From contig JBHLOY010000002.1 in assembly GCA_048939995.1 (NCBI GenBank), forward strand, positions 464,485 to 528,484: DNA of 64,000 nt, given 5' to 3'. Source of the stretch: Promethearchaeota archaeon. Lineage in GTDB: Archaea > Asgardarchaeota > Lokiarchaeia > Sigyniarchaeales > SOKP01. Below, in pieces: positions 33,077 through 44,366 of the stretch. The translations under genes were made by a program, and so were the position numbers. The stretch's first letter is position 1. Every line of letters begins with the position of its first letter. The notes beneath the pieces were generated by a model. It was given only the letters and a program-made list of their open reading frames with translations, was not told the origin of the DNA and ran no database searches.

Positions 33077-35950
33077 TTAAAAAAAGATACCTTTCTTTCT
33101 GAAAAGCAATTTGAAAAGTTCAAGTCCTCCAATACAAATCAATGAGATTAAAAAGCATACTAACCAATCGAGACCGGTTAAATACATAAACATAAAATTT
33201 ATACCCCAAGATTGTAGAGTTACTTGAAACCCAGGAATATACATTAAAGCAATAAAAACTCCGAATAATAAGCCAATTAAAAGATACATAAACTTGGTAC
33301 TATCTTCTTTAAGGCTTCTAATTAAGGATTTATTTGGTCGTCTGATCTGGTACACTAGAAAAGATTCACAAAAAAATAGGGTTACCATAAGCATTGTAAG
33401 AGTTTTTGCTTGAGAAGGGGAAACACCTGGGGGAAATGATCCACCTGAAAAGAGGTAAGCACCGTTGAAAGCACCAAATTCATAGTTTTCTATAAAAACG
33501 GGATAACAACCTGTAATAACTGTAAAATAGGTTATAATCATACAGCTGGCTAATAAGATACCAAATATAAGCAGTAGAATAAACGTGTTTTTTGAAAGAA
33601 TTTGCTCCTCATCGCGTGGTTTTTGTTTCATAACATCTTTAGGAGTACGATCGAATGTTAATATTAAACCAGGGAATATATGTAAAGTTATTGAGAGAAA
33701 TATCCATTGATAATAGAAAGCATCAGATAGAAAATAGGGTTGCCTCAAAATTACCGTCAGAATGAATTGTACAATCCCTTCAAATACATTAATCACAATA
33801 TAAAAAAATACAACTGCACGAATTCGAGAAAAAATTCCTCTACCTTGTTCAATTCCCGTAACAATAGAATTAAATGAATCATCACTGATAACCATATCAC
33901 TTGCTTCTTTAGCTACATCCGTTCCTTGTATTCCCATAGCTATCCCTGCATCAGCCATATTGAGAGCTAAAGCATCATTCACTCCATCTCCCGTCATAGC
34001 AACTACCTTATTTGCATTTTGATATCTTTCCACAATATCCTCTTTATCTTCAGGAGAAACCCTAGCAAAAGCTTTAATTTTGCTGAAATCGTAGAATGAC
34101 TTGATACTATTGACATTTTTCCCCTCTATGACTATTTCATCTTCATGCTTTATTATAGATATTTGTTTTGCTATAGCTTCTGCTGTAGCGGGAGAATCTC
34201 CTGTTATCATTACTACATCAACCCCAGCTTCATAACATTGAAGGACACTTGCTTTAACACCTTCTCTAGGAGGATCTAAAATAGTTACAAAACCGATATA
34301 AATCATTTCTGATTCGCATAATTCTCTACTTTTGTCTCCTTCTGGAGGAATTTCATCTAATTTCTTATAACAGATACTTAATATCCGATAGCCTTGCTGT
34401 GCATATAGATCTGCTATTTTATTTATTTTTTCTTTTATAATATCTGTAAAATCTACCTCAGTGTCTTTATATAGTACTTTTTTACATTGAGGCATGAGAA
34501 TTTCACTAGCACCTTTCGTGAAAGAATAATATTTTCCATCTCTCTTGTATATCTTTGTCATTCTTTTTAATTTAGAATCAAATGGGTATTCCTTGATATA
34601 CTCAAAATCGTCAAGCATATAATCACCCATTCCTTTCTGGAAGAGGACCATCAAAGCACCTTCAGTCGGTGAGCCAATTACATTCCAGTTGGGTATAATC
34701 TTCCCAGAGATTTCAATTTCATTTTTCACTAACGCAGAATTATTATTTAAAAATCCAGCAATTAATAACAGTTTAAGTTGAGGATAATTATCAATGTGTT
34801 TTACGTAAACAGGATTTTTTGGATCGTCTAATAAAATAATATCTCCATCGGGCGTATATCCACTTCCAGTAACTTTGAAAGTAGAGCCATTTGTCCATAC
34901 ATTTTGGATTGACATTTGGTTTTTCGTTAATGTACCAGTTTTATCAGAACAGACAACACTTACACGCCCTAGACTGTCAACAGAGGCAAGATTTCTGATA
35001 ATAACACCCTGGCGAGCCATAACTAGAACTCCAGTTATCAAGATGATTGTTACAAGTAAGGGAATATTAATTGGTAAAAGATCCATGGCAGAATTCAAGC
35101 TAACTACAATTTCCAAATCGCCCCAAATCCCTAAATTAATAAGCACAATTATTAACCAAAATCCAATCACAATTAGACCTAACCATTTTCCGAAGTTATT
35201 CATTTTCTGTCTAATTGGAATCTCACTTGTTCCTGCTTCCTCCAATCCTTTTGATATTTTGCCAATCTCTGTATCTCTTCCTGTTTTAACTGCAATCGCA
35301 ATACCGTTACCAGTTGTGATATATGTCCCGTAAAATATCATATTGACTCGTTCTCCAATTGAAAGTTCTTTACTTTCTAACGCTTTTCCTTCTTGAAGCT
35401 TCTTTACAGGCTCACTCTCTCCACTAAGTGAGGCTTCATTGACTTCAAGATTGGACGATCTTATTATTCTTCCATCTGCTGGGATTCGATCTCCTTGCGT
35501 TAATACAAGTAAATCTCCTAAAACTACTTCCTTTGTTGCAATATCAATTTTTTCTCCATTTCTTATTACTGTCGTAGTCGGAGCTGTCATTTCTCTTAGG
35601 GCATTCAATTTTTTAGTTGCTCGATATTGTTGGATAATGGCAACCAAACAATTTAGAGCAACAATTCCCAAGGTTAATCCTATAAAAGTTAGATTACCTT
35701 CTCCACCCAAAACTGCTGCTAAAAATAATATTAAAGCCCCAATTAAATAAATAACAATTAACCAATTGAATAAGGGTGCTAAATATATTTTAATGAAACC
35801 TTTCGAAGCTTTAGGAATTTCATTTAATCCATATAGTTCTAATCGTTTTTGAGCTTCTTCTTTAGATAATCCATTAGTTGGATGAGTTTGAAATTTTGAG
35901 TAAATTTGATTTAATTCCATCGAATAAAATGGTTCTATTGATACAGTCAT
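33077..35950 (-). CDS. P-type ATPase, P2-like scaffold with atypical transport site (paralog A)
   Basis: SGES, DKTGTLT, KGASE, DPPR, MITGD, GDGVND; M4 reads MDLLPINIP, M6 LSITLHIFP. Confidence 0.93.
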   Translation of the reverse strand: MTVSIEPFYSMELNQIYSKFQTHPTNGLSKEEAQKRLELYGLNEIPKASKGFIKIYLAPLFNWLIVIYLIGALILFLAAVLGGEGNLTFIGLTLGIVALNCLVAIIQQYRATKKLNALREMTAPTTTVIRNGEKIDIATKEVVLGDLLVLTQGDRIPADGRIIRSSNLEVNEASLSGESEPVKKLQEGKALESKELSIGERVNMIFYGTYITTGNGIAIAVKTGRDTEIGKISKGLEEAGTSEIPIRQKMNNFGKWLGLIVIGFWLIIVLINLGIWGDLEIVVSLNSAMDLLPINIPLLVTIILITGVLVMARQGVIIRNLASVDSLGRVSVVCSDKTGTLTKNQMSIQNVWTNGSTFKVTGSGYTPDGDIILLDDPKNPVYVKHIDNYPQLKLLLIAGFLNNNSALVKNEIEISGKIIPNWNVIGSPTEGALMVLFQKGMGDYMLDDFEYIKEYPFDSKLKRMTKIYKRDGKYYSFTKGASEILMPQCKKVLYKDTEVDFTDIIKEKINKIADLYAQQGYRILSICYKKLDEIPPEGDKSRELCESEMIYIGFVTILDPPREGVKASVLQCYEAGVDVVMITGDSPATAEAIAKQISIIKHEDEIVIEGKNVNSIKSFYDFSKIKAFARVSPEDKEDIVERYQNANKVVAMTGDGVNDALALNMADAGIAMGIQGTDVAKEASDMVISDDSFNSIVTGIEQGRGIFSRIRAVVFFYIVINVFEGIVQFILTVILRQPYFLSDAFYYQWIFLSITLHIFPGLILTFDRTPKDVMKQKPRDEEQILSKNTFILLLIFGILLASCMIITYFTVITGCYPVFIENYEFGAFNGAYLFSGGSFPPGVSPSQAKTLTMLMVTLFFCESFLVYQIRRPNKSLIRSLKEDSTKFMYLLIGLLFGVFIALMYIPGFQVTLQSWGINFMFMYLTGLDWLVCFLISLICIGGLELFKLLFRKKGIFF

Positions 35951-36123
35951 AAGAATAGTCTCTCCCGCGACTTTTAAAAATTTTACAATATATGATGATA
36001 AGATTAAATCATTTTAATAGATAGACTATAATAACAATTATTTTTATTTTATTTCTTTTTGAAACTAATTAGTAGTTTAAGAAATTAATTAAAAGAAAAA
36101 ATGAGATTAGATTTTAATTAGTC

Positions 36124-37848
36124 TTATAAAACTCCCGCATCTTTTAGAATCTGCTTATGATCAAAAGCCAAATCTATGCTTTTTACTTTTTCTATTGGTA
36201 TCGCTTCAGCTATAACTGCATCATCTCCTCCTGCCATTTCTGACAGATCTTTGACTAAGCGACATTTGAACGCCGTTGATACAATCCTACCGCGTGGATC
36301 ACGCCCCTTTTTATCATATGTACCAATCTTTTTAATAATTTCAACCACAAGATTAGTTTCCTCCCTAACTTCTCTTATTACAGCTTTTTCAGCATCTTCA
36401 TTATATTGAATAAAACCACCTGGAAGTGCATATTTTCCCCTTTCGGGATAATACTTTCTTTTAATAAGTATAAGATTTTGACTATCATCTAAAATGACAG
36501 CATCAGCAGTATATCCTTTTTCTTCTACTTTAGACTGCAATCGATATAAGAAAATGTAGGTAAAAGTTACTATAAACATTAATCCAATAACAGTTGAAGC
36601 AATGAGGTATGCTATATTTCCGTATTGTAATGGATTTGTTCCTTGTATTAAAACATCAAAGAAGTCTTTTAAAATTCCCGCACTCAATATGATATTAACG
36701 AGATATAAAATTCTCCTTGTAGTTCTTTGATTCTTTTCATTTCTTTGAGTATAATATTCTTGCAATGAGTCATAGAGTAGTTCAAATTTCTTGGCGACTC
36801 TTTTCATTATTTTTTCGATTCGAAATATATCTAAAAGATGAGTTAAAATCCGTGTATAATGTTCTCGAGGGTTCCAGTCTAATTTACTATATAGCATGGT
36901 CATTTTCGTTTGGATCATTCCCCTTAAAAATCTTAAGTTATCTATTTTACTTTCAATAGTTTCCAAACTCATAAAAACGTATGAATATCGTTTCATAAAT
37001 AGTATATCCAATGAATTTTCTATTGTCATTAATGCAAATAAAACAGATCTCACTTTTGGAGTAGGATCTAGTATATGTTCTTCAATATATTTGAACTCTT
37101 TTTGATAATTGTCTTGTACCATATATATGAAACCTGAATTTCTCTGAATATAATGTAATTCAGAAAGCCGATTAGAAAAATTCTTCTCTGTCCTTCTATC
37201 AAATAGTTCCTCAGAATAATCAGGCCACTGCCCAGAATAGATTCGTGTCCAATATCCAATGCTTTTTTTATATTGTTCTCGATTATTACTATCCCATTGA
37301 ACAGTATGGGGCATTGTTTTATTAGAGATAACGAAAACATAAATAGGACTTTCTAAATCAAGGATTAAAAACTCATTTTCCCTTCTTTTATTAAATTCTT
37401 TAAGAATATCTACAGCGATAAAGGGAACTTGTTGGATCAAATCAGGAGTTATTTTTTCTTTCTTATATTCCTCATTCTTATAATATTCAACTTCTAATTT
37501 GAAATATCCGAGAGTGTTATATTCTAATTTTTTTTGTTCATCAACTTCCGAATATGGCTTATTTTCGTCAGTGTAAGGAAAACTTTGGAAATATGGTTCC
37601 CAATCGCATTCTATTGATATTGAACTTGCCATATCTCTTAATGTTTCTTTCTTTATTTCAGCCTGCGGATATTTATCTAAATATAAAAAAGCTTTACTAA
37701 AGTCTTCCTCACTTAAATTACGTAATCTTCTTATTAATAATTCTTCTATTTGTTCTGCCTTTATTTCCCCAACGAATTCAACCGTATTAATAAAAGCACT
37801 GATATACCAGTATTCTTTTCCGTAGATAAAACGTAGGTTTTCTTCCAT
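36124..37848 (-). CDS. Fusion protein: CorA/DUF155-like soluble region + 2 TM + C-terminal NUDIX hydrolase
   Basis: Nudix box GGFIQYNEDAEKAVIREVREETNL, RDPRGR, LAFDH; two TM helices at aa ~380-435 preceded by long amphipathic helices (family of the N-terminal part is inferred). Confidence 0.8.
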   Translation of the reverse strand: MEENLRFIYGKEYWYISAFINTVEFVGEIKAEQIEELLIRRLRNLSEEDFSKAFLYLDKYPQAEIKKETLRDMASSISIECDWEPYFQSFPYTDENKPYSEVDEQKKLEYNTLGYFKLEVEYYKNEEYKKEKITPDLIQQVPFIAVDILKEFNKRRENEFLILDLESPIYVFVISNKTMPHTVQWDSNNREQYKKSIGYWTRIYSGQWPDYSEELFDRRTEKNFSNRLSELHYIQRNSGFIYMVQDNYQKEFKYIEEHILDPTPKVRSVLFALMTIENSLDILFMKRYSYVFMSLETIESKIDNLRFLRGMIQTKMTMLYSKLDWNPREHYTRILTHLLDIFRIEKIMKRVAKKFELLYDSLQEYYTQRNEKNQRTTRRILYLVNIILSAGILKDFFDVLIQGTNPLQYGNIAYLIASTVIGLMFIVTFTYIFLYRLQSKVEEKGYTADAVILDDSQNLILIKRKYYPERGKYALPGGFIQYNEDAEKAVIREVREETNLVVEIIKKIGTYDKKGRDPRGRIVSTAFKCRLVKDLSEMAGGDDAVIAEAIPIEKVKSIDLAFDHKQILKDAGVL

Positions 37849-37949
37849 TTGTAATTTGCCCTCTTAGTTATTTTTATTTAGAGTGATTAAATAATTATTA
37901 AATTGTTATTCTATTTATTACTTTTTTTTCAAAATAAATATTATTACTT

Positions 37950-38765
37950 TTAAATTTCTTTATTAGATTTTAATTTAACTCTAATTTTTTGAAAAACTTT
38001 ATTCCAATCAATATATACCAGCAAGAATAGAAGAATAATTGATGCCGCCCAAACTAATGAACTTTGGAAAATCTCTAAAGGTGTGCTGGGAGGAATAATT
38101 CCCAATCGCGCAGCGTCAATATCTATGCCAAATAAACCAAACAGAAAAATTCCTAATGAAGTATCAGCAAGCCAAATTGGGAGTGCGCTACATAAAAAGC
38201 ATAGGGTGAATTTTCCAGCGAAACAATATATCAATGTCTTAACGAGGCTATATTGAGCAAGTCCTAAAACGATTAGAAATGCATCGTCTGGAAGAGGTGT
38301 AGCTGCAAAAATGAAAATCAGGATTGGAGCCCAACCTTTATCTACATATCTTTTCATCCTTTCCATACTTTTAGAATCTCCGATAATTTCTTTTGAACTG
38401 CGTCCAATTAACCATGCACTTACTTCTCCAATACTAGCTCCTAATCCAGCTACAATTCCAATTAATATGGGATTTACACCAGGTATTACGGCAGATATCA
38501 CGATTAAAGCAACAACATAAGGAACGGGAAAAATTATTGTAAAATTACCGAAAATACTAATTAAAAATATCCCTAGATATATTCCAAAATCCCCAAATTC
38601 ATTATAGAACCATATAACTGCGTTAGCAAGCCATTGACCAAAATTGATGTTTAATAATGCAAATATAATAAATAAAATTAAAATCGCACCAATAAATATT
38701 ATTCCTCCATACTTTTTCAGAAAACTAAATCCTTTAGAATTTTTTACTCTATTTCCACTATTCAT
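37950..38765 (-). CDS. DedA/VTT domain (SNARE-associated Golgi family) membrane protein
   Basis: GN.TIIFPVPY, GLGASIGEVSAWLIGR, FIFAATPLPDD, FAGK; AGGAG Shine-Dalgarno, 29 bp downstream of the P-type ATPase stop. Confidence 0.87.
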   Translation of the reverse strand: MNSGNRVKNSKGFSFLKKYGGIIFIGAILILFIIFALLNINFGQWLANAVIWFYNEFGDFGIYLGIFLISIFGNFTIIFPVPYVVALIVISAVIPGVNPILIGIVAGLGASIGEVSAWLIGRSSKEIIGDSKSMERMKRYVDKGWAPILIFIFAATPLPDDAFLIVLGLAQYSLVKTLIYCFAGKFTLCFLCSALPIWLADTSLGIFLFGLFGIDIDAARLGIIPPSTPLEIFQSSLVWAASIILLFLLVYIDWNKVFQKIRVKLKSNKEI

Positions 38766-38794
38766 CTGTGATCTCCTAAATAAATATATTATAA

Positions 38795-41647
38795 TTAAAA
38801 TCTGATGTTTCTTCTTCTTGCGAAATACTTCACTACTTCAATTCCAATTATACCCGGCAGAGAAAATAGGATGCAATAGAACCAGTCTGTAAGACTTAGG
38901 AACATAAAATTAATTTGGAAATTTAATCCCGATGCCTCATTTAAAAAATAATTTATTGGTGCTGAGAAACAAATATGCAAAATGTGTAAGGATAATGTAA
39001 AAAGGCTAATAATTAACAATTTCCAATTAAATTCCTCTTTAATACTCTTAAAAAGCGATTTATTTGGTCGCCTGATACTCCAAATGAAGTTTGTCTCAAC
39101 GATATAAAGGGTAGTAATAAACATAGTTCTCGCTTTTTGGGCTAACCCTACTGATCCAGAATAGCTTAAGTCAATATTATAGGAATTTAATGGGATTAGG
39201 TTTGCTAGGGTCATTTGTAATGCTAAGACTAAGCCTAAACCCATTAGGAACGCATGTATAAGTAGCAATCCCCAGATATTTCTGTTTAGTATTTCTTCTC
39301 CATTTCGTGGAGGTTCCTGCATTACATCCTTAGGTGCTTTATCTATAACTAATGCTAAAGAGGGAAGTGAATGGACTATACCAAAAATGTAAAGATGTTG
39401 CCATTCGGAACTAAATAGTTGAAAAACTCCGGGCGGGATGAATTCATAAGTAAAAAATATTAGAGCTTCCATTATATTTAAACAAATAAAGAAGTATACA
39501 ATTACTCTTATCTTAGCAAACAATCCCCTCCCGATTTTTACACCTTTTACTATAGATGTAAAATTATCATCTGATATGACCAAATCTGCTGTTTCTTTAG
39601 CTACATCTGTGCCAGTAATTCCCATAGCTATTCCGGTATTAGCTAACTTTAATGCTAAAGCATCATTTATACCATCACCCGTCATAGCTACAATCTTATT
39701 AGCATTCTGGTACTTTCTTACTATAACCTCTTTATCTGAAGGAGATACTCTAGCAAAAACAGATACACGGTTAAATTCACTGTCATCAAGATCAGATATC
39801 TTGGATCCTTCAGCAACTATATCATTTGGTTTAAATATTCTCATTTGGGAGGCAATTGTTTGAGCAGTGTTTGGATGATCTCCTGTGATCATAGTAACTT
39901 TAATACCTCCAGATTCACATTCTTCTACTGATTCTCTAACATAATTACGAGGTGGATCTAGAATTGATAAAAAACTTAGAAAAGTTAAATCTTTCTCGAT
40001 ATTTTCTCTTGCCTTCTCAGCTTCATTTTCTAACTCTTTATACGCTATAGCTAAGATTCTGTATCCTTGTTTTGCTCTTGATTGTATTTTATCTAATAGC
40101 TCTTGTTTCTTCTCTTTTGACAATAAGCTAATTATTCCATCAATTTCAATCTGATTAGTAATTTCTAATATTTTTTCGGGAGCTCCTTTGGAAAATACAT
40201 AATTAGTATTTTTATCACTATTTAATCTACAAATAGTTGACATTCGTTTGATTTCAGAACTGAATGAAAATTCTTTTAGCTTAGTATAAGATTTTATAAT
40301 ATCATATGGAATATAACCTGCTTTTTCAGCTAAGGTTAGCAATGATGCTTCAGTAGAGGAGCCTAATGCCCTTCTAACTGCCATTTGTTTGACATCTTTT
40401 AGTTTAACTTTAACATCTTCATAAATGAGTCTTGCATTATTATTTAACACACTTGATTCAATGAATTTTTGAAATGTTTTATCTTCTTTTAAATTTACAG
40501 CTTTACCATTATCTAGAATAATACCCTCTGCTTCATAACCAGAACCTGTTACACAATATTCCTTATCATTTATCCAAAATTTTTCAACTGTCATTTCATT
40601 TCTAGTTATCGTTCCAGTTTTATCTGAGCAAATTACAGAAACCCTACCTAAAGATTCAATAGCTGAAAGATTCTTAATTATGACTCCACTTTCAGCCATT
40701 TTTAGTACTCCTGTAATTAAAACTAACGTAGTTAATATAGGCAAATTTATAGGCATAATATTCATTGACCTAAGGATTGAACTAGTTAAAGCTTCACTAA
40801 TATTATCTCCGTAGAAAAGTCCTTGAATTCCTAAGAAGCTGAATTTATATATTATTAGGATAATTAGGATTACAATTACAATACTACCTAAAATATATCC
40901 TATTCTGTTCAATTTTTTAGTTAATGGGATTTCTTCAATACTACCCATTTCATTTAATTGATTCGAGATTTTACCTATTTCGGTATTGATGCCCGTTCCT
41001 GTCACTAAAGCCCTTGCTCTTCCAGTATTTATATAGGTCCCCATAAACACCATGTTAAGTTGTTTTTGTATTGGTAATTCCCCATTTCTCAGAGTATAAT
41101 TATGTTTTTCAACAGGTTCGCTCTCACCAGTTAAGGAAGCTTCATCAATTGTTAAATTAGTAAATTCTATTATTCTAGCATCTGCAGGAGTTTTATCTCC
41201 TTCTTCCAATAAAATTATATCTCCTGGTAATAATTCTCGAGTGGGTATTTCAAATTGTATACCATCTCTTAGAACCACTGCTTTTAAAGCACCAATTTTT
41301 CTAAGGGATTCAAGAGCTTTTTGTGCTCTGAATTGCTGAATTATTACAGTTATAGAATTTAGAATTACTACTATGAACGTAATTATTGTGGATCCCGGTG
41401 AACCTAAAAAAAGCACAAGAATCCCAGAAATAAGTAAAATTATAATCAAAAAATTGAATATAGGAGCTAAATAAATTTTCCAGATTGATTTTTTAATTTT
41501 GGGTAACTCGTTGTATCCAAAACTAGAATAACGAGATTCCAAATCAGATGAATTTAAACCTTTTTCTTTATCACTAGTAAAAGTTTGAATTAATTCTGGT
41601 ATTGTTTGAGAGTAATATTTATTATTAGATATTGGAAATTCTGACAT
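38795..41647 (-). CDS. P-type ATPase, P2-like scaffold with atypical transport site (paralog B)
   Basis: TGES, DKTGTIT, KGAPE, DPPR, MITGD, GDGIND; M4 reads MNIMPINLP, M6 IFGIVHSLP. Confidence 0.93.
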   Translation of the reverse strand: MSEFPISNNKYYSQTIPELIQTFTSDKEKGLNSSDLESRYSSFGYNELPKIKKSIWKIYLAPIFNFLIIILLISGILVLFLGSPGSTIITFIVVILNSITVIIQQFRAQKALESLRKIGALKAVVLRDGIQFEIPTRELLPGDIILLEEGDKTPADARIIEFTNLTIDEASLTGESEPVEKHNYTLRNGELPIQKQLNMVFMGTYINTGRARALVTGTGINTEIGKISNQLNEMGSIEEIPLTKKLNRIGYILGSIVIVILIILIIYKFSFLGIQGLFYGDNISEALTSSILRSMNIMPINLPILTTLVLITGVLKMAESGVIIKNLSAIESLGRVSVICSDKTGTITRNEMTVEKFWINDKEYCVTGSGYEAEGIILDNGKAVNLKEDKTFQKFIESSVLNNNARLIYEDVKVKLKDVKQMAVRRALGSSTEASLLTLAEKAGYIPYDIIKSYTKLKEFSFSSEIKRMSTICRLNSDKNTNYVFSKGAPEKILEITNQIEIDGIISLLSKEKKQELLDKIQSRAKQGYRILAIAYKELENEAEKARENIEKDLTFLSFLSILDPPRNYVRESVEECESGGIKVTMITGDHPNTAQTIASQMRIFKPNDIVAEGSKISDLDDSEFNRVSVFARVSPSDKEVIVRKYQNANKIVAMTGDGINDALALKLANTGIAMGITGTDVAKETADLVISDDNFTSIVKGVKIGRGLFAKIRVIVYFFICLNIMEALIFFTYEFIPPGVFQLFSSEWQHLYIFGIVHSLPSLALVIDKAPKDVMQEPPRNGEEILNRNIWGLLLIHAFLMGLGLVLALQMTLANLIPLNSYNIDLSYSGSVGLAQKARTMFITTLYIVETNFIWSIRRPNKSLFKSIKEEFNWKLLIISLFTLSLHILHICFSAPINYFLNEASGLNFQINFMFLSLTDWFYCILFSLPGIIGIEVVKYFARRRNIRF

Positions 41648-41730: not shown

Positions 41731-42696
41731 TTATGCCTTGATAGTTTGAGGATCTCCAAGAATGCCTTTTAAAACGTTAAATTTTTTTCTAATTGTAGTA
41801 CTTGAGAATTTTGTGGTTTCTTCTATAATACTCTGGGTAAAAATTTTCTTATTATCAAGTGTTTGCCCTATATAATAAATCAAGCCAGCAGTAAAGGCTT
41901 TATAATTCAGATTTTGAACATCAGAGTATTTTATCTGCTGTAGTAATTTGGCGACTAGTAATTGCATCTCAACTTTTAATTTATCATATTCAGATTTGCT
42001 TGAAAAATGATTTTTTATTTTATCATAGGTAATATTATTAAGATCTTTTTGGAATAATATTTTAATTTTTTCTTTGATTTCACGTTCTAGAGTTGAAGTA
42101 TCCTTGAGATCTTTATTGAACGTATTCTCTGTTCGCTTTACCTTAAGCATAGCATTATTAAGCATTTTTTTATTAATTTTATGTCCTAATTCTCGAGCAA
42201 TTCTAATGTATTCTTCTAACCTTACGTTTGTTGTATCTTTTATTTCCAACCAGAGAATTGCTAAAAAGATTATAACCATATTTTGATATGTATGTCTATG
42301 ATACTTGTTATATTTAAGATATCTATCCTTGATTTCTTGATACTTTACTTTATCAATATTTAATCCTATCCCATAACTCTTAAATAGTTCAATAGTTTTT
42401 TTTTGTTCAGAAAAGCTTGATTGATAATCTCTATACCAAATGTCTAATGTCTTTATTTGGTCATATTTTTGTTTTATTTTGGGGTCTTGAATTGCTTTTG
42501 AATCACCTGACCTAATTTTTCGCTCATAATTTATCTGAGAATCTGAATATAAAATAGGGGTGGTAGATTCCTCAAAAGCAATGCGATCCTCAAAAATTAA
42601 ACCGCAATCTTTACAAACTAAATAACCACCATTTTGCTCAATATTCTTATGGTCACATTTAGAGTCTTCAGAGTTTATAGTTCTTTTTTTTTTCAA
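41731..42696 (-). CDS. Divergent TFIIB/TFB-like protein (zinc ribbon + cyclin-like repeats)
   Basis: CDH...LVCKDCGLIF zinc ribbon; C-terminal AFTAGLIYYIG...TQSIIEETTKFSSTTIRKKF resembles the TFB C-terminal HTH. Confidence 0.7.
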   Translation of the reverse strand: MKKKRTINSEDSKCDHKNIEQNGGYLVCKDCGLIFEDRIAFEESTTPILYSDSQINYERKIRSGDSKAIQDPKIKQKYDQIKTLDIWYRDYQSSFSEQKKTIELFKSYGIGLNIDKVKYQEIKDRYLKYNKYHRHTYQNMVIIFLAILWLEIKDTTNVRLEEYIRIARELGHKINKKMLNNAMLKVKRTENTFNKDLKDTSTLEREIKEKIKILFQKDLNNITYDKIKNHFSSKSEYDKLKVEMQLLVAKLLQQIKYSDVQNLNYKAFTAGLIYYIGQTLDNKKIFTQSIIEETTKFSSTTIRKKFNVLKGILGDPQTIKA

Positions 42697-43442: not shown

Positions 43443-44366
43443 TTATAACAATTTCCTTTTAATTTGCTTTGCTCTACTTCTTAGGGTCACTTCGGTGATT
43501 TTAGCAACATCTGCTACAATAGACTGAGTTTTGCGGAGTCCACGATCCTTAGCGGAAATATATATGCAAGCAGCTGCTAATCCTTTTGGATCTTTTCCAG
43601 TACGTTTCAATCCATTTTCAGAAGCTTTTCTAAGCATATCAATTGCACATTTCTGAACTGCCATGGGCAAATCAAGCTCGTTTCCAAAACGGAAAACCAA
43701 ACTTTCAGCTGTAATAGGCTGATAACGTAACCCTAATTCAGGTAATACTTCTCGTATGATCATAGCCAAGCTTCTGTGAACTGTTCGTCTTGGAGTTAGC
43801 GATGCCTCACAAACCTCATCTAATAAACGAGGAAAATCATGAACTCTTATAGCCGCATATAGGGATCCTGCTATAAAACCATTGATTGAACGGCCCATCG
43901 TTAACTTTTTCTTTGCTACTATACTATAAACTTTCCAAGCAGTTTCACTTATATATTCTGGAATATTTAATTTTGAAGTGAGCATTTTTAATTTGGGCTT
44001 TGCTTCCCAAAAGTTTCTCTCAATACTTGAAATTAAAGAATTTTGAATTTTTGATAATCTTGAGAATAAAGCTTGTTCTTTTGGTCCTATTGATTTTCCT
44101 TTTGAATCTGTTTTGGTTGAGGGTAACATTGTCCTCGGGCCAAAATCCCTCCACCTTGGTTCAGTTCTACGTCTTGTTTGAACTTCTTCGGCTGTATACG
44201 CCCTTCGTTCGTTTCCTACATATGTCCTTTCAATAATAATCCCACAATTCAAACAAACCTTATTTCCGTCTCGCTCTTCTATATTTGGGTCTTCACAGCA
44301 ATCACGAATTTGTAAATCATCATCTAAATTCTTATTCTTCAGAAGATCACGGTAAATATTATTCAT
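43443..44366 (-). CDS. tfb: Transcription initiation factor IIB (TFB)
   Basis: VCLNCG zinc ribbon, ERRAY B-reader, LTMGRSI...SLYAAIR, GKDPKGLAAACIY, TQS.VADVA.ITEVTLRSR. Confidence 0.93.
   Translation of the reverse strand: MNNIYRDLLKNKNLDDDLQIRDCCEDPNIEERDGNKVCLNCGIIIERTYVGNERRAYTAEEVQTRRRTEPRWRDFGPRTMLPSTKTDSKGKSIGPKEQALFSRLSKIQNSLISSIERNFWEAKPKLKMLTSKLNIPEYISETAWKVYSIVAKKKLTMGRSINGFIAGSLYAAIRVHDFPRLLDEVCEASLTPRRTVHRSLAMIIREVLPELGLRYQPITAESLVFRFGNELDLPMAVQKCAIDMLRKASENGLKRTGKDPKGLAAACIYISAKDRGLRKTQSIVADVAKITEVTLRSRAKQIKRKLL

Follow-up and report, generated by a model that had tools for sequence, protein, structure and literature searches.

The window analysed here is a 64,000-nucleotide stretch of a Promethearchaeota genome (contig JBHLOY010000002.1, positions 464,485 to 528,484; assembly GCA_048939995.1). 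It encodes two P-type ATPases of the P2 type, called A and B below, in which the membrane transport site has been rebuilt. They belong to what is apparently an old and undescribed Asgard-archaeal branch of the calcium-pump family, and the residues of the site suggest that the cargo is probably something other than calcium. This transport site was found in none of the P-type families tested, and the clade that carries it has a wide distribution in the nearest archaeal relatives of eukaryotes.

The transport site of pumps A and B

Paralog A (957 amino acids, 33077–35950) and paralog B (950 amino acids, 38795–41647) both lie on the minus strand and are 41% identical. Both open reading frames (ORFs) are full-length, and the catalytic set is complete in each (SGES/TGES, DKTGT, KGA.E, TGD and GDG.ND), as the initial annotation of this DNA had described for two intact P2-type paralogs. 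The superfamily assignment rests on the DKTGT, TGES-like, TGD and GDGxND motifs together with the fold made of actuator (A), nucleotide-binding (N), phosphorylation (P) and membrane (M) domains. A pseudogene reading is ruled out by the intact ORFs and motifs. Close homologs carry Lokiarchaeota/Promethearchaeota labels.

The register of the membrane helices (M1, M2 and so on) was set by alignment to LMCA1 of Listeria and to canonical Asgard P2A pumps, and the SERCA residue numbers are those established for that pump. Relative to these pumps, the Glu of the M4 PEGL motif is replaced by Ile and the Gly after it by Asn, and His takes the place of the M6 Asp. In A, M4 reads PINIP (amino acids 293–297, 35060–35074), with the phosphorylation motif DKTGT 43 residues past the M4 Pro (34931–34945). 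M5 carries N-V-F-E, equivalent to SERCA N768/E771 (33779–33790), and the M6 His757 occupies the D800 position (33680–33682). In B, M4 reads PINLP (amino acids 299–303, 40739–40753), DKTGT contains Asp342 (40610–40624), and the A-domain motif is TGES (41120–41131), where P4 pumps have DGET. Its M5 reads N724-I-M-E727, the Asn having no preceding Lys (39467–39478), its M6 His759 is at the D800 position (39371–39373), and its M8 segment contains Glu851, equivalent to E908 (39089–39103). All these features are on the minus strand. In both proteins the equivalents of the M6 residues N796 and T799 are lost, the M5 Asn and Glu and the M8 Glu are kept, and M2 reads QQ. The alignment upholds the register first proposed for this site. 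With the M4 Glu replaced by a hydrophobic residue, the M6 Asn lost and the M6 Asp changed to His, Ca2+ site II is erased.

Conservation was counted over 247 distinct family proteins, numbered as in B. The M5 Glu (E727), the M6 His (H759) and the M2 Asn97 are invariant (247/247), as is Gln104. Asn301, which follows the M4 Ile, is present in 244 of the 247 (99%), the M8 Glu in 97% and the M5 Asn in 96%. The M4 Glu position is hydrophobic throughout (Ile, Phe, Leu, Val or Met in 247/247, and Trp too in a wider sequence set). It is followed by a small polar residue, Asn, Thr or Ser, the last in a single protein of the 247 (one member reading PISIP). The second M4 Pro is kept in 242/247, the spacing from M4 to the phosphorylated Asp is 43 residues in 247/247, and T/SGES is found in all. 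These counts for the M6 His, the M5 Glu and the Asn after Ile rule out a chance, sporadic or decayed motif.

The remaining positions vary by lineage. The M8 Glu is lost throughout a Hodarchaeales-type lineage (L051, L055 and L056) that retains the M5 Glu and M6 His, and the M5 Asn (N724) is replaced by Asp, Ser or Leu in other lineages. Since the M4 Ile, the M8 Glu and the M5 Asn are variable, a two-residue charge pair would fit the site better than a full metal shell. Other differences in the groove are fixed by subfamily: A-type proteins have Asp at −4 (32/32), and B-type proteins have Asn or Gly, with Phe or Tyr in M6. One member, P0177, apparently lacks the M6 His, the M8 Glu and the M5 Asn.

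Relationships and distribution of the family

Proteins with the rebuilt site form a single clade with 100/100 support. In a tree without P4 sequences, this clade is sister to the prokaryotic P2A pumps (84/91), inside the P2 group (98/99); with P4 included, it is not resolved within P2A. These trees hold no P2B, P2D, P5, P6 or eukaryotic P2A sequences. As placed, the family appears to be a P2 subfamily in its own right, either the sister group of prokaryotic P2A or a branch at its base. The deepest-branching members start M4 with a P2A-like LAVAAIP run, the retention of which points to descent from a P2A-like pump. The genes probably go back to an early Asgard ancestor, with a later duplication in Lokiarchaeia that gave A and B.

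Compared with P2A pumps (LMCA1, SPCA1/PMR1, SERCA and the canonical Asgard PEGL pumps), which give its best sequence, profile and fold matches as well as its sister group, the family has the same domain layout, ten helices, TGES motif, 43-residue spacing, M5 Asn/Glu and M8 Glu. The two differ in M4 (Glu to Ile, Gly to Asn) and M6 (Asn/Thr lost, Asp to His), and also in M1, where QFxD becomes P..N, and in M2, where QE becomes QQ. Scores stay below the curated calcium-pump cut-offs, at 453–455 bits for TIGR01522 (cut-off 798) and 414–448 bits for TIGR01116 (703), which canonical P2A copies from related genomes reach or come near. An AlphaFold model of B (predicted local distance difference test score, pLDDT, 85.7) has the ten-helix P2 fold, and structure searches with it gave SERCA, SPCA1, LMCA1, PMCA, Na,K-ATPase and Pma1 as best matches. 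The best 50 matches in two such searches were P2 or P3A only, and the lack of a P4 entry among them is not evidence of exclusion. P5 pumps are set apart by their PPxLP motif, absent here, and by TIGR01657, against which the family scores 231–242 bits (cut-off 618). The P6 pump CtpE of Mycobacterium is another prokaryotic P2-like pump without the M6 Asp; it keeps PEGL and has an M6 Ile (PMC10654040), whereas the family lacks the Glu and has an M6 His. By motifs and profiles, the family thus seems to behave as a P2 pump, yet it falls outside the defining tests for P2A, P3A, P4, P5 and P6.

A search of 400 Asgard genomes separated two score classes. Of 33 Asgard families, 17 have the rebuilt site as verified by reading of the sequences, and these include Lokiarchaeia and Thor-, Hermod-, Atabey- and Heimdall/Hodarchaeales-type genomes; several other Asgard families gave no match with the query used in this search. 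The initial annotation had left room for a sporadic motif, and the genome search finds instead a conserved one, confined to the one fully supported clade. Among the matches listed in a motif scan of GTDB species, the true ones came from Asgard archaea, at least two Nitrososphaeria, at least two Bathyarchaeia, at least one Methanomethylicus and at least one bacterial contig, NJBP01000013.1 (L398/L139) in an 'Aerophobetes' genome, which bears a Loki-type tandem of B and A and is probably a misbinned Lokiarchaeote contig. None of the remaining bacterial sequences that matched the DNA pattern was a P-type pump. The family is rare in TACK archaea. In the phylum of the Bathyarchaeote only 2 of 401 genomes have it, and their copies nest beside Atabey-type sequences, which suggests transfer. 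Among 1.84 billion representative sequences it amounts to about 35–40 clusters, after which scores drop to ordinary Glu/Asp P2A pumps, and no intermediate combining Glu with His or Ile with Asp was found among them. A separate loss of the M4 Glu is seen in other Asgard P2A pumps, which read PSGLP (Glu to Ser) and keep the M6 Asp (L099:3407-6250, L390:583-3399 and L393:527-3310); one of these pumps is in L. ossiferum.

Lokiarchaeal genomes contain two to four diverged paralogs each. Three copies are found in each of the two cultured species, MK-D1 and L. ossiferum, which makes the substrate now testable. The MK-D1 proteins are QEE14736, QEE15990 and QEE17851, those of L. ossiferum UYP46299, UYP47961 and UYP45173. 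These copies are annotated generically or as KdpB; in L. ossiferum all three (L036, L060 and L086) bear the label 'Potassium-transporting ATPase ATP-binding subunit'. Against the KdpB profile, the family scores about 100–120 bits (cut-off 528). Because database labels read Ca2+ pump or even KdpB, claims on Asgard calcium handling that are based on gene counts may be inflated. A survey of Asgard transporters lists such genes as putative Ca2+ ATPases, in no detail (PMC7997004). A 2023 review recognizes six P-type families, foresees further ones among prokaryotes and does not mention this one (PMC10654040). Our literature search, the coverage of which left out most subscription journals, found no paper on this pump family.

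The initial annotation had called the site P4-flippase-like. To our knowledge, eukaryotic P4-ATPases have no prokaryotic counterpart. The P4 references used for comparison were 39 eukaryotic sequences from metagenome contigs, two of which were checked to lie above the TIGR01652 cut-off; viral contigs had yielded none. Both the family and P4 pumps (ATP8A2, Drs2, Neo1) have Ile in place of the M4 Glu, with a small polar residue next to it, and both lack the M6 Asp; the likeness to eukaryotic lipid flippases rests on one or two residues. In the A domain, P4 references have DGE (38/39), whereas T/SGES is found throughout the family. The M4 Pro and the phosphorylated Asp are 47–54 residues apart in P4 pumps, an insertion of 4–11 over the 43 of the family. 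P4 pumps carry Lys/Arg in M5 (K873; 12/12), where the family has a hydrophobic residue or Thr, and Asn in M6 (9/12), which no family member has. M4 reads PISL in P4 and PIN[IL]P in the family, with the second Pro kept; the M1 Gln of P4 is Pro in the family, which, unlike P4, keeps two buried membrane Glu. The M2 QQ is not a P4 feature, since P4 has Asp there. Nor does the proposed match of N-I-M-P-I-N-L in B to ATP8A2 extend to the family: of 71 diverse members, 17 have the leading Asn, and none has Asn one position earlier. On TIGR01652 (cut-off 431) the family scores 92–126 bits versus 102–109 for canonical P2A, and profile-profile scores are 484 for family and P4, 474 for P2A and P4, and 1923 for family and Asgard P2A. 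Thus, of the uncharacterised subclass first suggested, the conserved character of the group and the doubt about an ordinary Ca2+ pump stand; the P4-like site is not supported, as the other P4 hallmarks tested are absent and the P4 score is at P2A level. A CDC50 beta subunit was not found in 151 Asgard genomes, by a search without a working positive control, and P4B pumps do without CDC50 (PMC10654040).

Candidate cargoes

The reading we tentatively prefer is a pump for H+ or another small monovalent cation that would use a Glu-His pair. It is drawn by analogy with the P3A H+ pumps, on the grounds that both have the P-I-x-L-P break in the helix and an Asn in M2. Ile or Val at the M4 Glu position is typical of P3/P3A H+ pumps (PMC4937031), and the P3A mechanism relies on Asp in M6, Arg in M5 and Asn in M2 (PMC10654040). 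P3A pumps (AHA2, Pma1 and archaeal PIALP/PVALP pumps) and the family have in common an M4 of the form P-[IV]-x-L-P, hydrophobic at the Glu position and with the second Pro, the M2 Asn, and one acid and one base on M5/M6. The charges are swapped in the family (Glu on M5, His on M6), which lacks the M6 Asp proton acceptor and the M5 basic residue of P3A. Asgard P3A pumps read PIALP and PVALP, nearer to PINLP than PISL is. Under the proposed mechanism, the pump would run a normal E1/E2 cycle, and the invariant M5 Glu and M6 His, at two neighbouring positions of site I, would form a charge pair acting as proton carrier and built-in counter-charge. This pair may be a charge-swapped version, on a P2 scaffold, of the M6 Asp/M5 Arg pair of P3A; if true, it would be new chemistry for this pump family.

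Several points weigh against a Glu-His cation pump. We know of no P-type pump with His at the M6 Asp position. The family scores 317–332 bits against TIGR01647 (P3A, cut-off 615.5) and sits on a separate branch with a P2 scaffold, and in the absence of descent from P3A the likeness would be convergent. Moreover, the diverged Loki paralogs, with their fixed differences in the M4/M6 groove, would equally suit varied organic substrates, and a DedA/VTT gene adjoins B in some genomes. P3A H+-ATPases scoring over the curated cut-off are present in two Asgard genomes, L355 (G123) and L381 (G117); prokaryotic P3A pumps are found mainly in methanogens, according to the 2023 review (PMC10654040).

A rival reading is a translocase of lipids or organic solutes, derived from a P2A pump independently of P4, in which the M4 Ile would serve as a hydrophobic gate and the M6 His would supply a built-in charge, replacing the P4 M5 Lys. 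The hydrophobic M4 residue of all members, the N/T/S next to it and the expansion of paralogs with groove differences would agree with it. So would the DedA/VTT gene that directly follows B in 16 of the 53 B loci with a visible next gene, and that lies near the third paralog in some Promethearchaeaceae. The VTT-family proteins TMEM41B and VMP1 are scramblases (PMC8077175). This neighbour is a weak lipid hint at most: within the order, only about 33 of 154 genomes carry a close VTT ortholog, several of them on a contig other than that of pump B, and no neighbour is common across Asgard classes. Since the residues of the P4 head-group path are missing as well (M1 Gln to Pro, the Asn upstream in M4 variable, M6 Asn lost, no M5 Lys/Arg) and two buried Glu are retained, we consider such a translocase unlikely, though not negligible. 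An exporter of transition metals (Mn, Fe, Zn or Co) is more doubtful. Of the five SERCA site I positions, four are filled by N724, E727, H759 and E851, at 96–100% conservation, and these residues could together form a rebuilt site I (Asn, Glu, His, Glu), such His/Glu sets being typical soft-metal ligands. However, one whole lineage has no E851, N724 changes in others, and the phosphorylation of P2 pumps normally depends on the M4 Glu site as its trigger. The host genome already has four P1B metal pumps, and no metal-homeostasis neighbours were seen at the pump loci. It is improbable that the proteins are still Ca2+ pumps, single-site or inward-directed, as the databases annotate them. Sequence, tree and fold all place them nearest to Ca2+ pumps, and CtpE moves Ca2+ without an M6 Asp (PMC10654040). 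Here, though, both M4 Glu and M6 Asp are gone, whereas PEGL is retained in CtpE; His coordinates Ca2+ poorly, and the scores are far under the calcium-pump cut-offs. The same genome also holds one canonical PEG-motif P2A pump, and such a pump coexists with rebuilt-site pumps in the genomes of relatives too, so that Ca2+ export is already covered.

In the last reading, the prokaryotic clade and the eukaryotic P4 flippases are sister groups, and the clade is a surviving intermediate between P2 and P4. The origin of P4 is an open question (PMC10654040). A tree holding family and P4 together was 5.4 log-likelihood units above the free search (approximately unbiased, AU, test 0.58), and both have the M4 Ile, an Arg/Gln before a P-domain strand and an M3-entry Asn. 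The position of P4 was then tested by grafting onto 81 branches of a fixed backbone, which limits the test. A P2C-like group came first and the stem of the family second of the 81, 0.8–2.0 units behind (AU 0.52–0.73); six further positions were likewise not rejected. The ranking was similar under LG, without M4, without the membrane columns (cytoplasmic only) and under C20-PMSF (AU 0.52). The signal for the stem comes mainly from two columns, Ile300 and Arg335, the second of which is also present in the canonical P2A of the host genome, and the P4 stem length of 2.0 makes long-branch pull likely. P4 grafted inside the family, the Heimdall/Hodarchaeales branch included, was rejected under the mixture model (AU 0.04 to 1e-5); with cytoplasmic columns alone, some deep internal placements were not. 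The Heimdall branch is where a host-inherited gene should sit, and its rejection counts against a P4 origin there. Profile similarity to P4 is in no excess over that of ordinary P2A (484 versus 474). The intermediate suggested by the initial annotation is thus weakened, the stem position surviving the test and the positions within the clade failing it, and we regard the sister-group reading as highly improbable. Smaller still is the likelihood that this archaeal clade both flips lipids at the expense of ATP and is the closest relative of P4-ATPases among prokaryotes. Lipid flipping, if true, would bear on how membrane asymmetry began.

Neighbouring genes

B and A usually lie in tandem within the host genome's family. 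In the window, they are separated by two genes, a DedA/VTT gene and a membrane NUDIX fusion gene. The DedA/VTT-domain membrane protein (37950–38765, minus strand) starts 29 bp downstream of B, a linkage that holds for only a part of the Lokiarchaeote family; as most genomes lack a close ortholog, it is ruled out as an obligate partner of the pump. The NUDIX fusion (36124–37848, minus strand) is a protein of 574 amino acids, with an N-terminal part of about 430 amino acids ending in two membrane helices and a C-terminal NUDIX domain. Its nearest Atlas clusters include 'CorA-like protein' (0.93), and its place between the VTT gene and pump A is apparently the same in genome G262.

Upstream of pump B is a gene for a TFIIB-type zinc-ribbon protein without a cyclin-repeat match (41731–42696, minus strand). 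It is found just upstream of B in most loci of the host's family, and a normal TFIIB gene lies two genes on (43443–44366, minus strand). In four Thorarchaeia loci (L043, L044, L045 and L047), the gene directly downstream of the pump encodes a 654-amino-acid membrane protein with a UFM1 E3 ligase-like Pfam match (PF09743, E 1e-11), and a membrane subtilase is divergent upstream of the pump.

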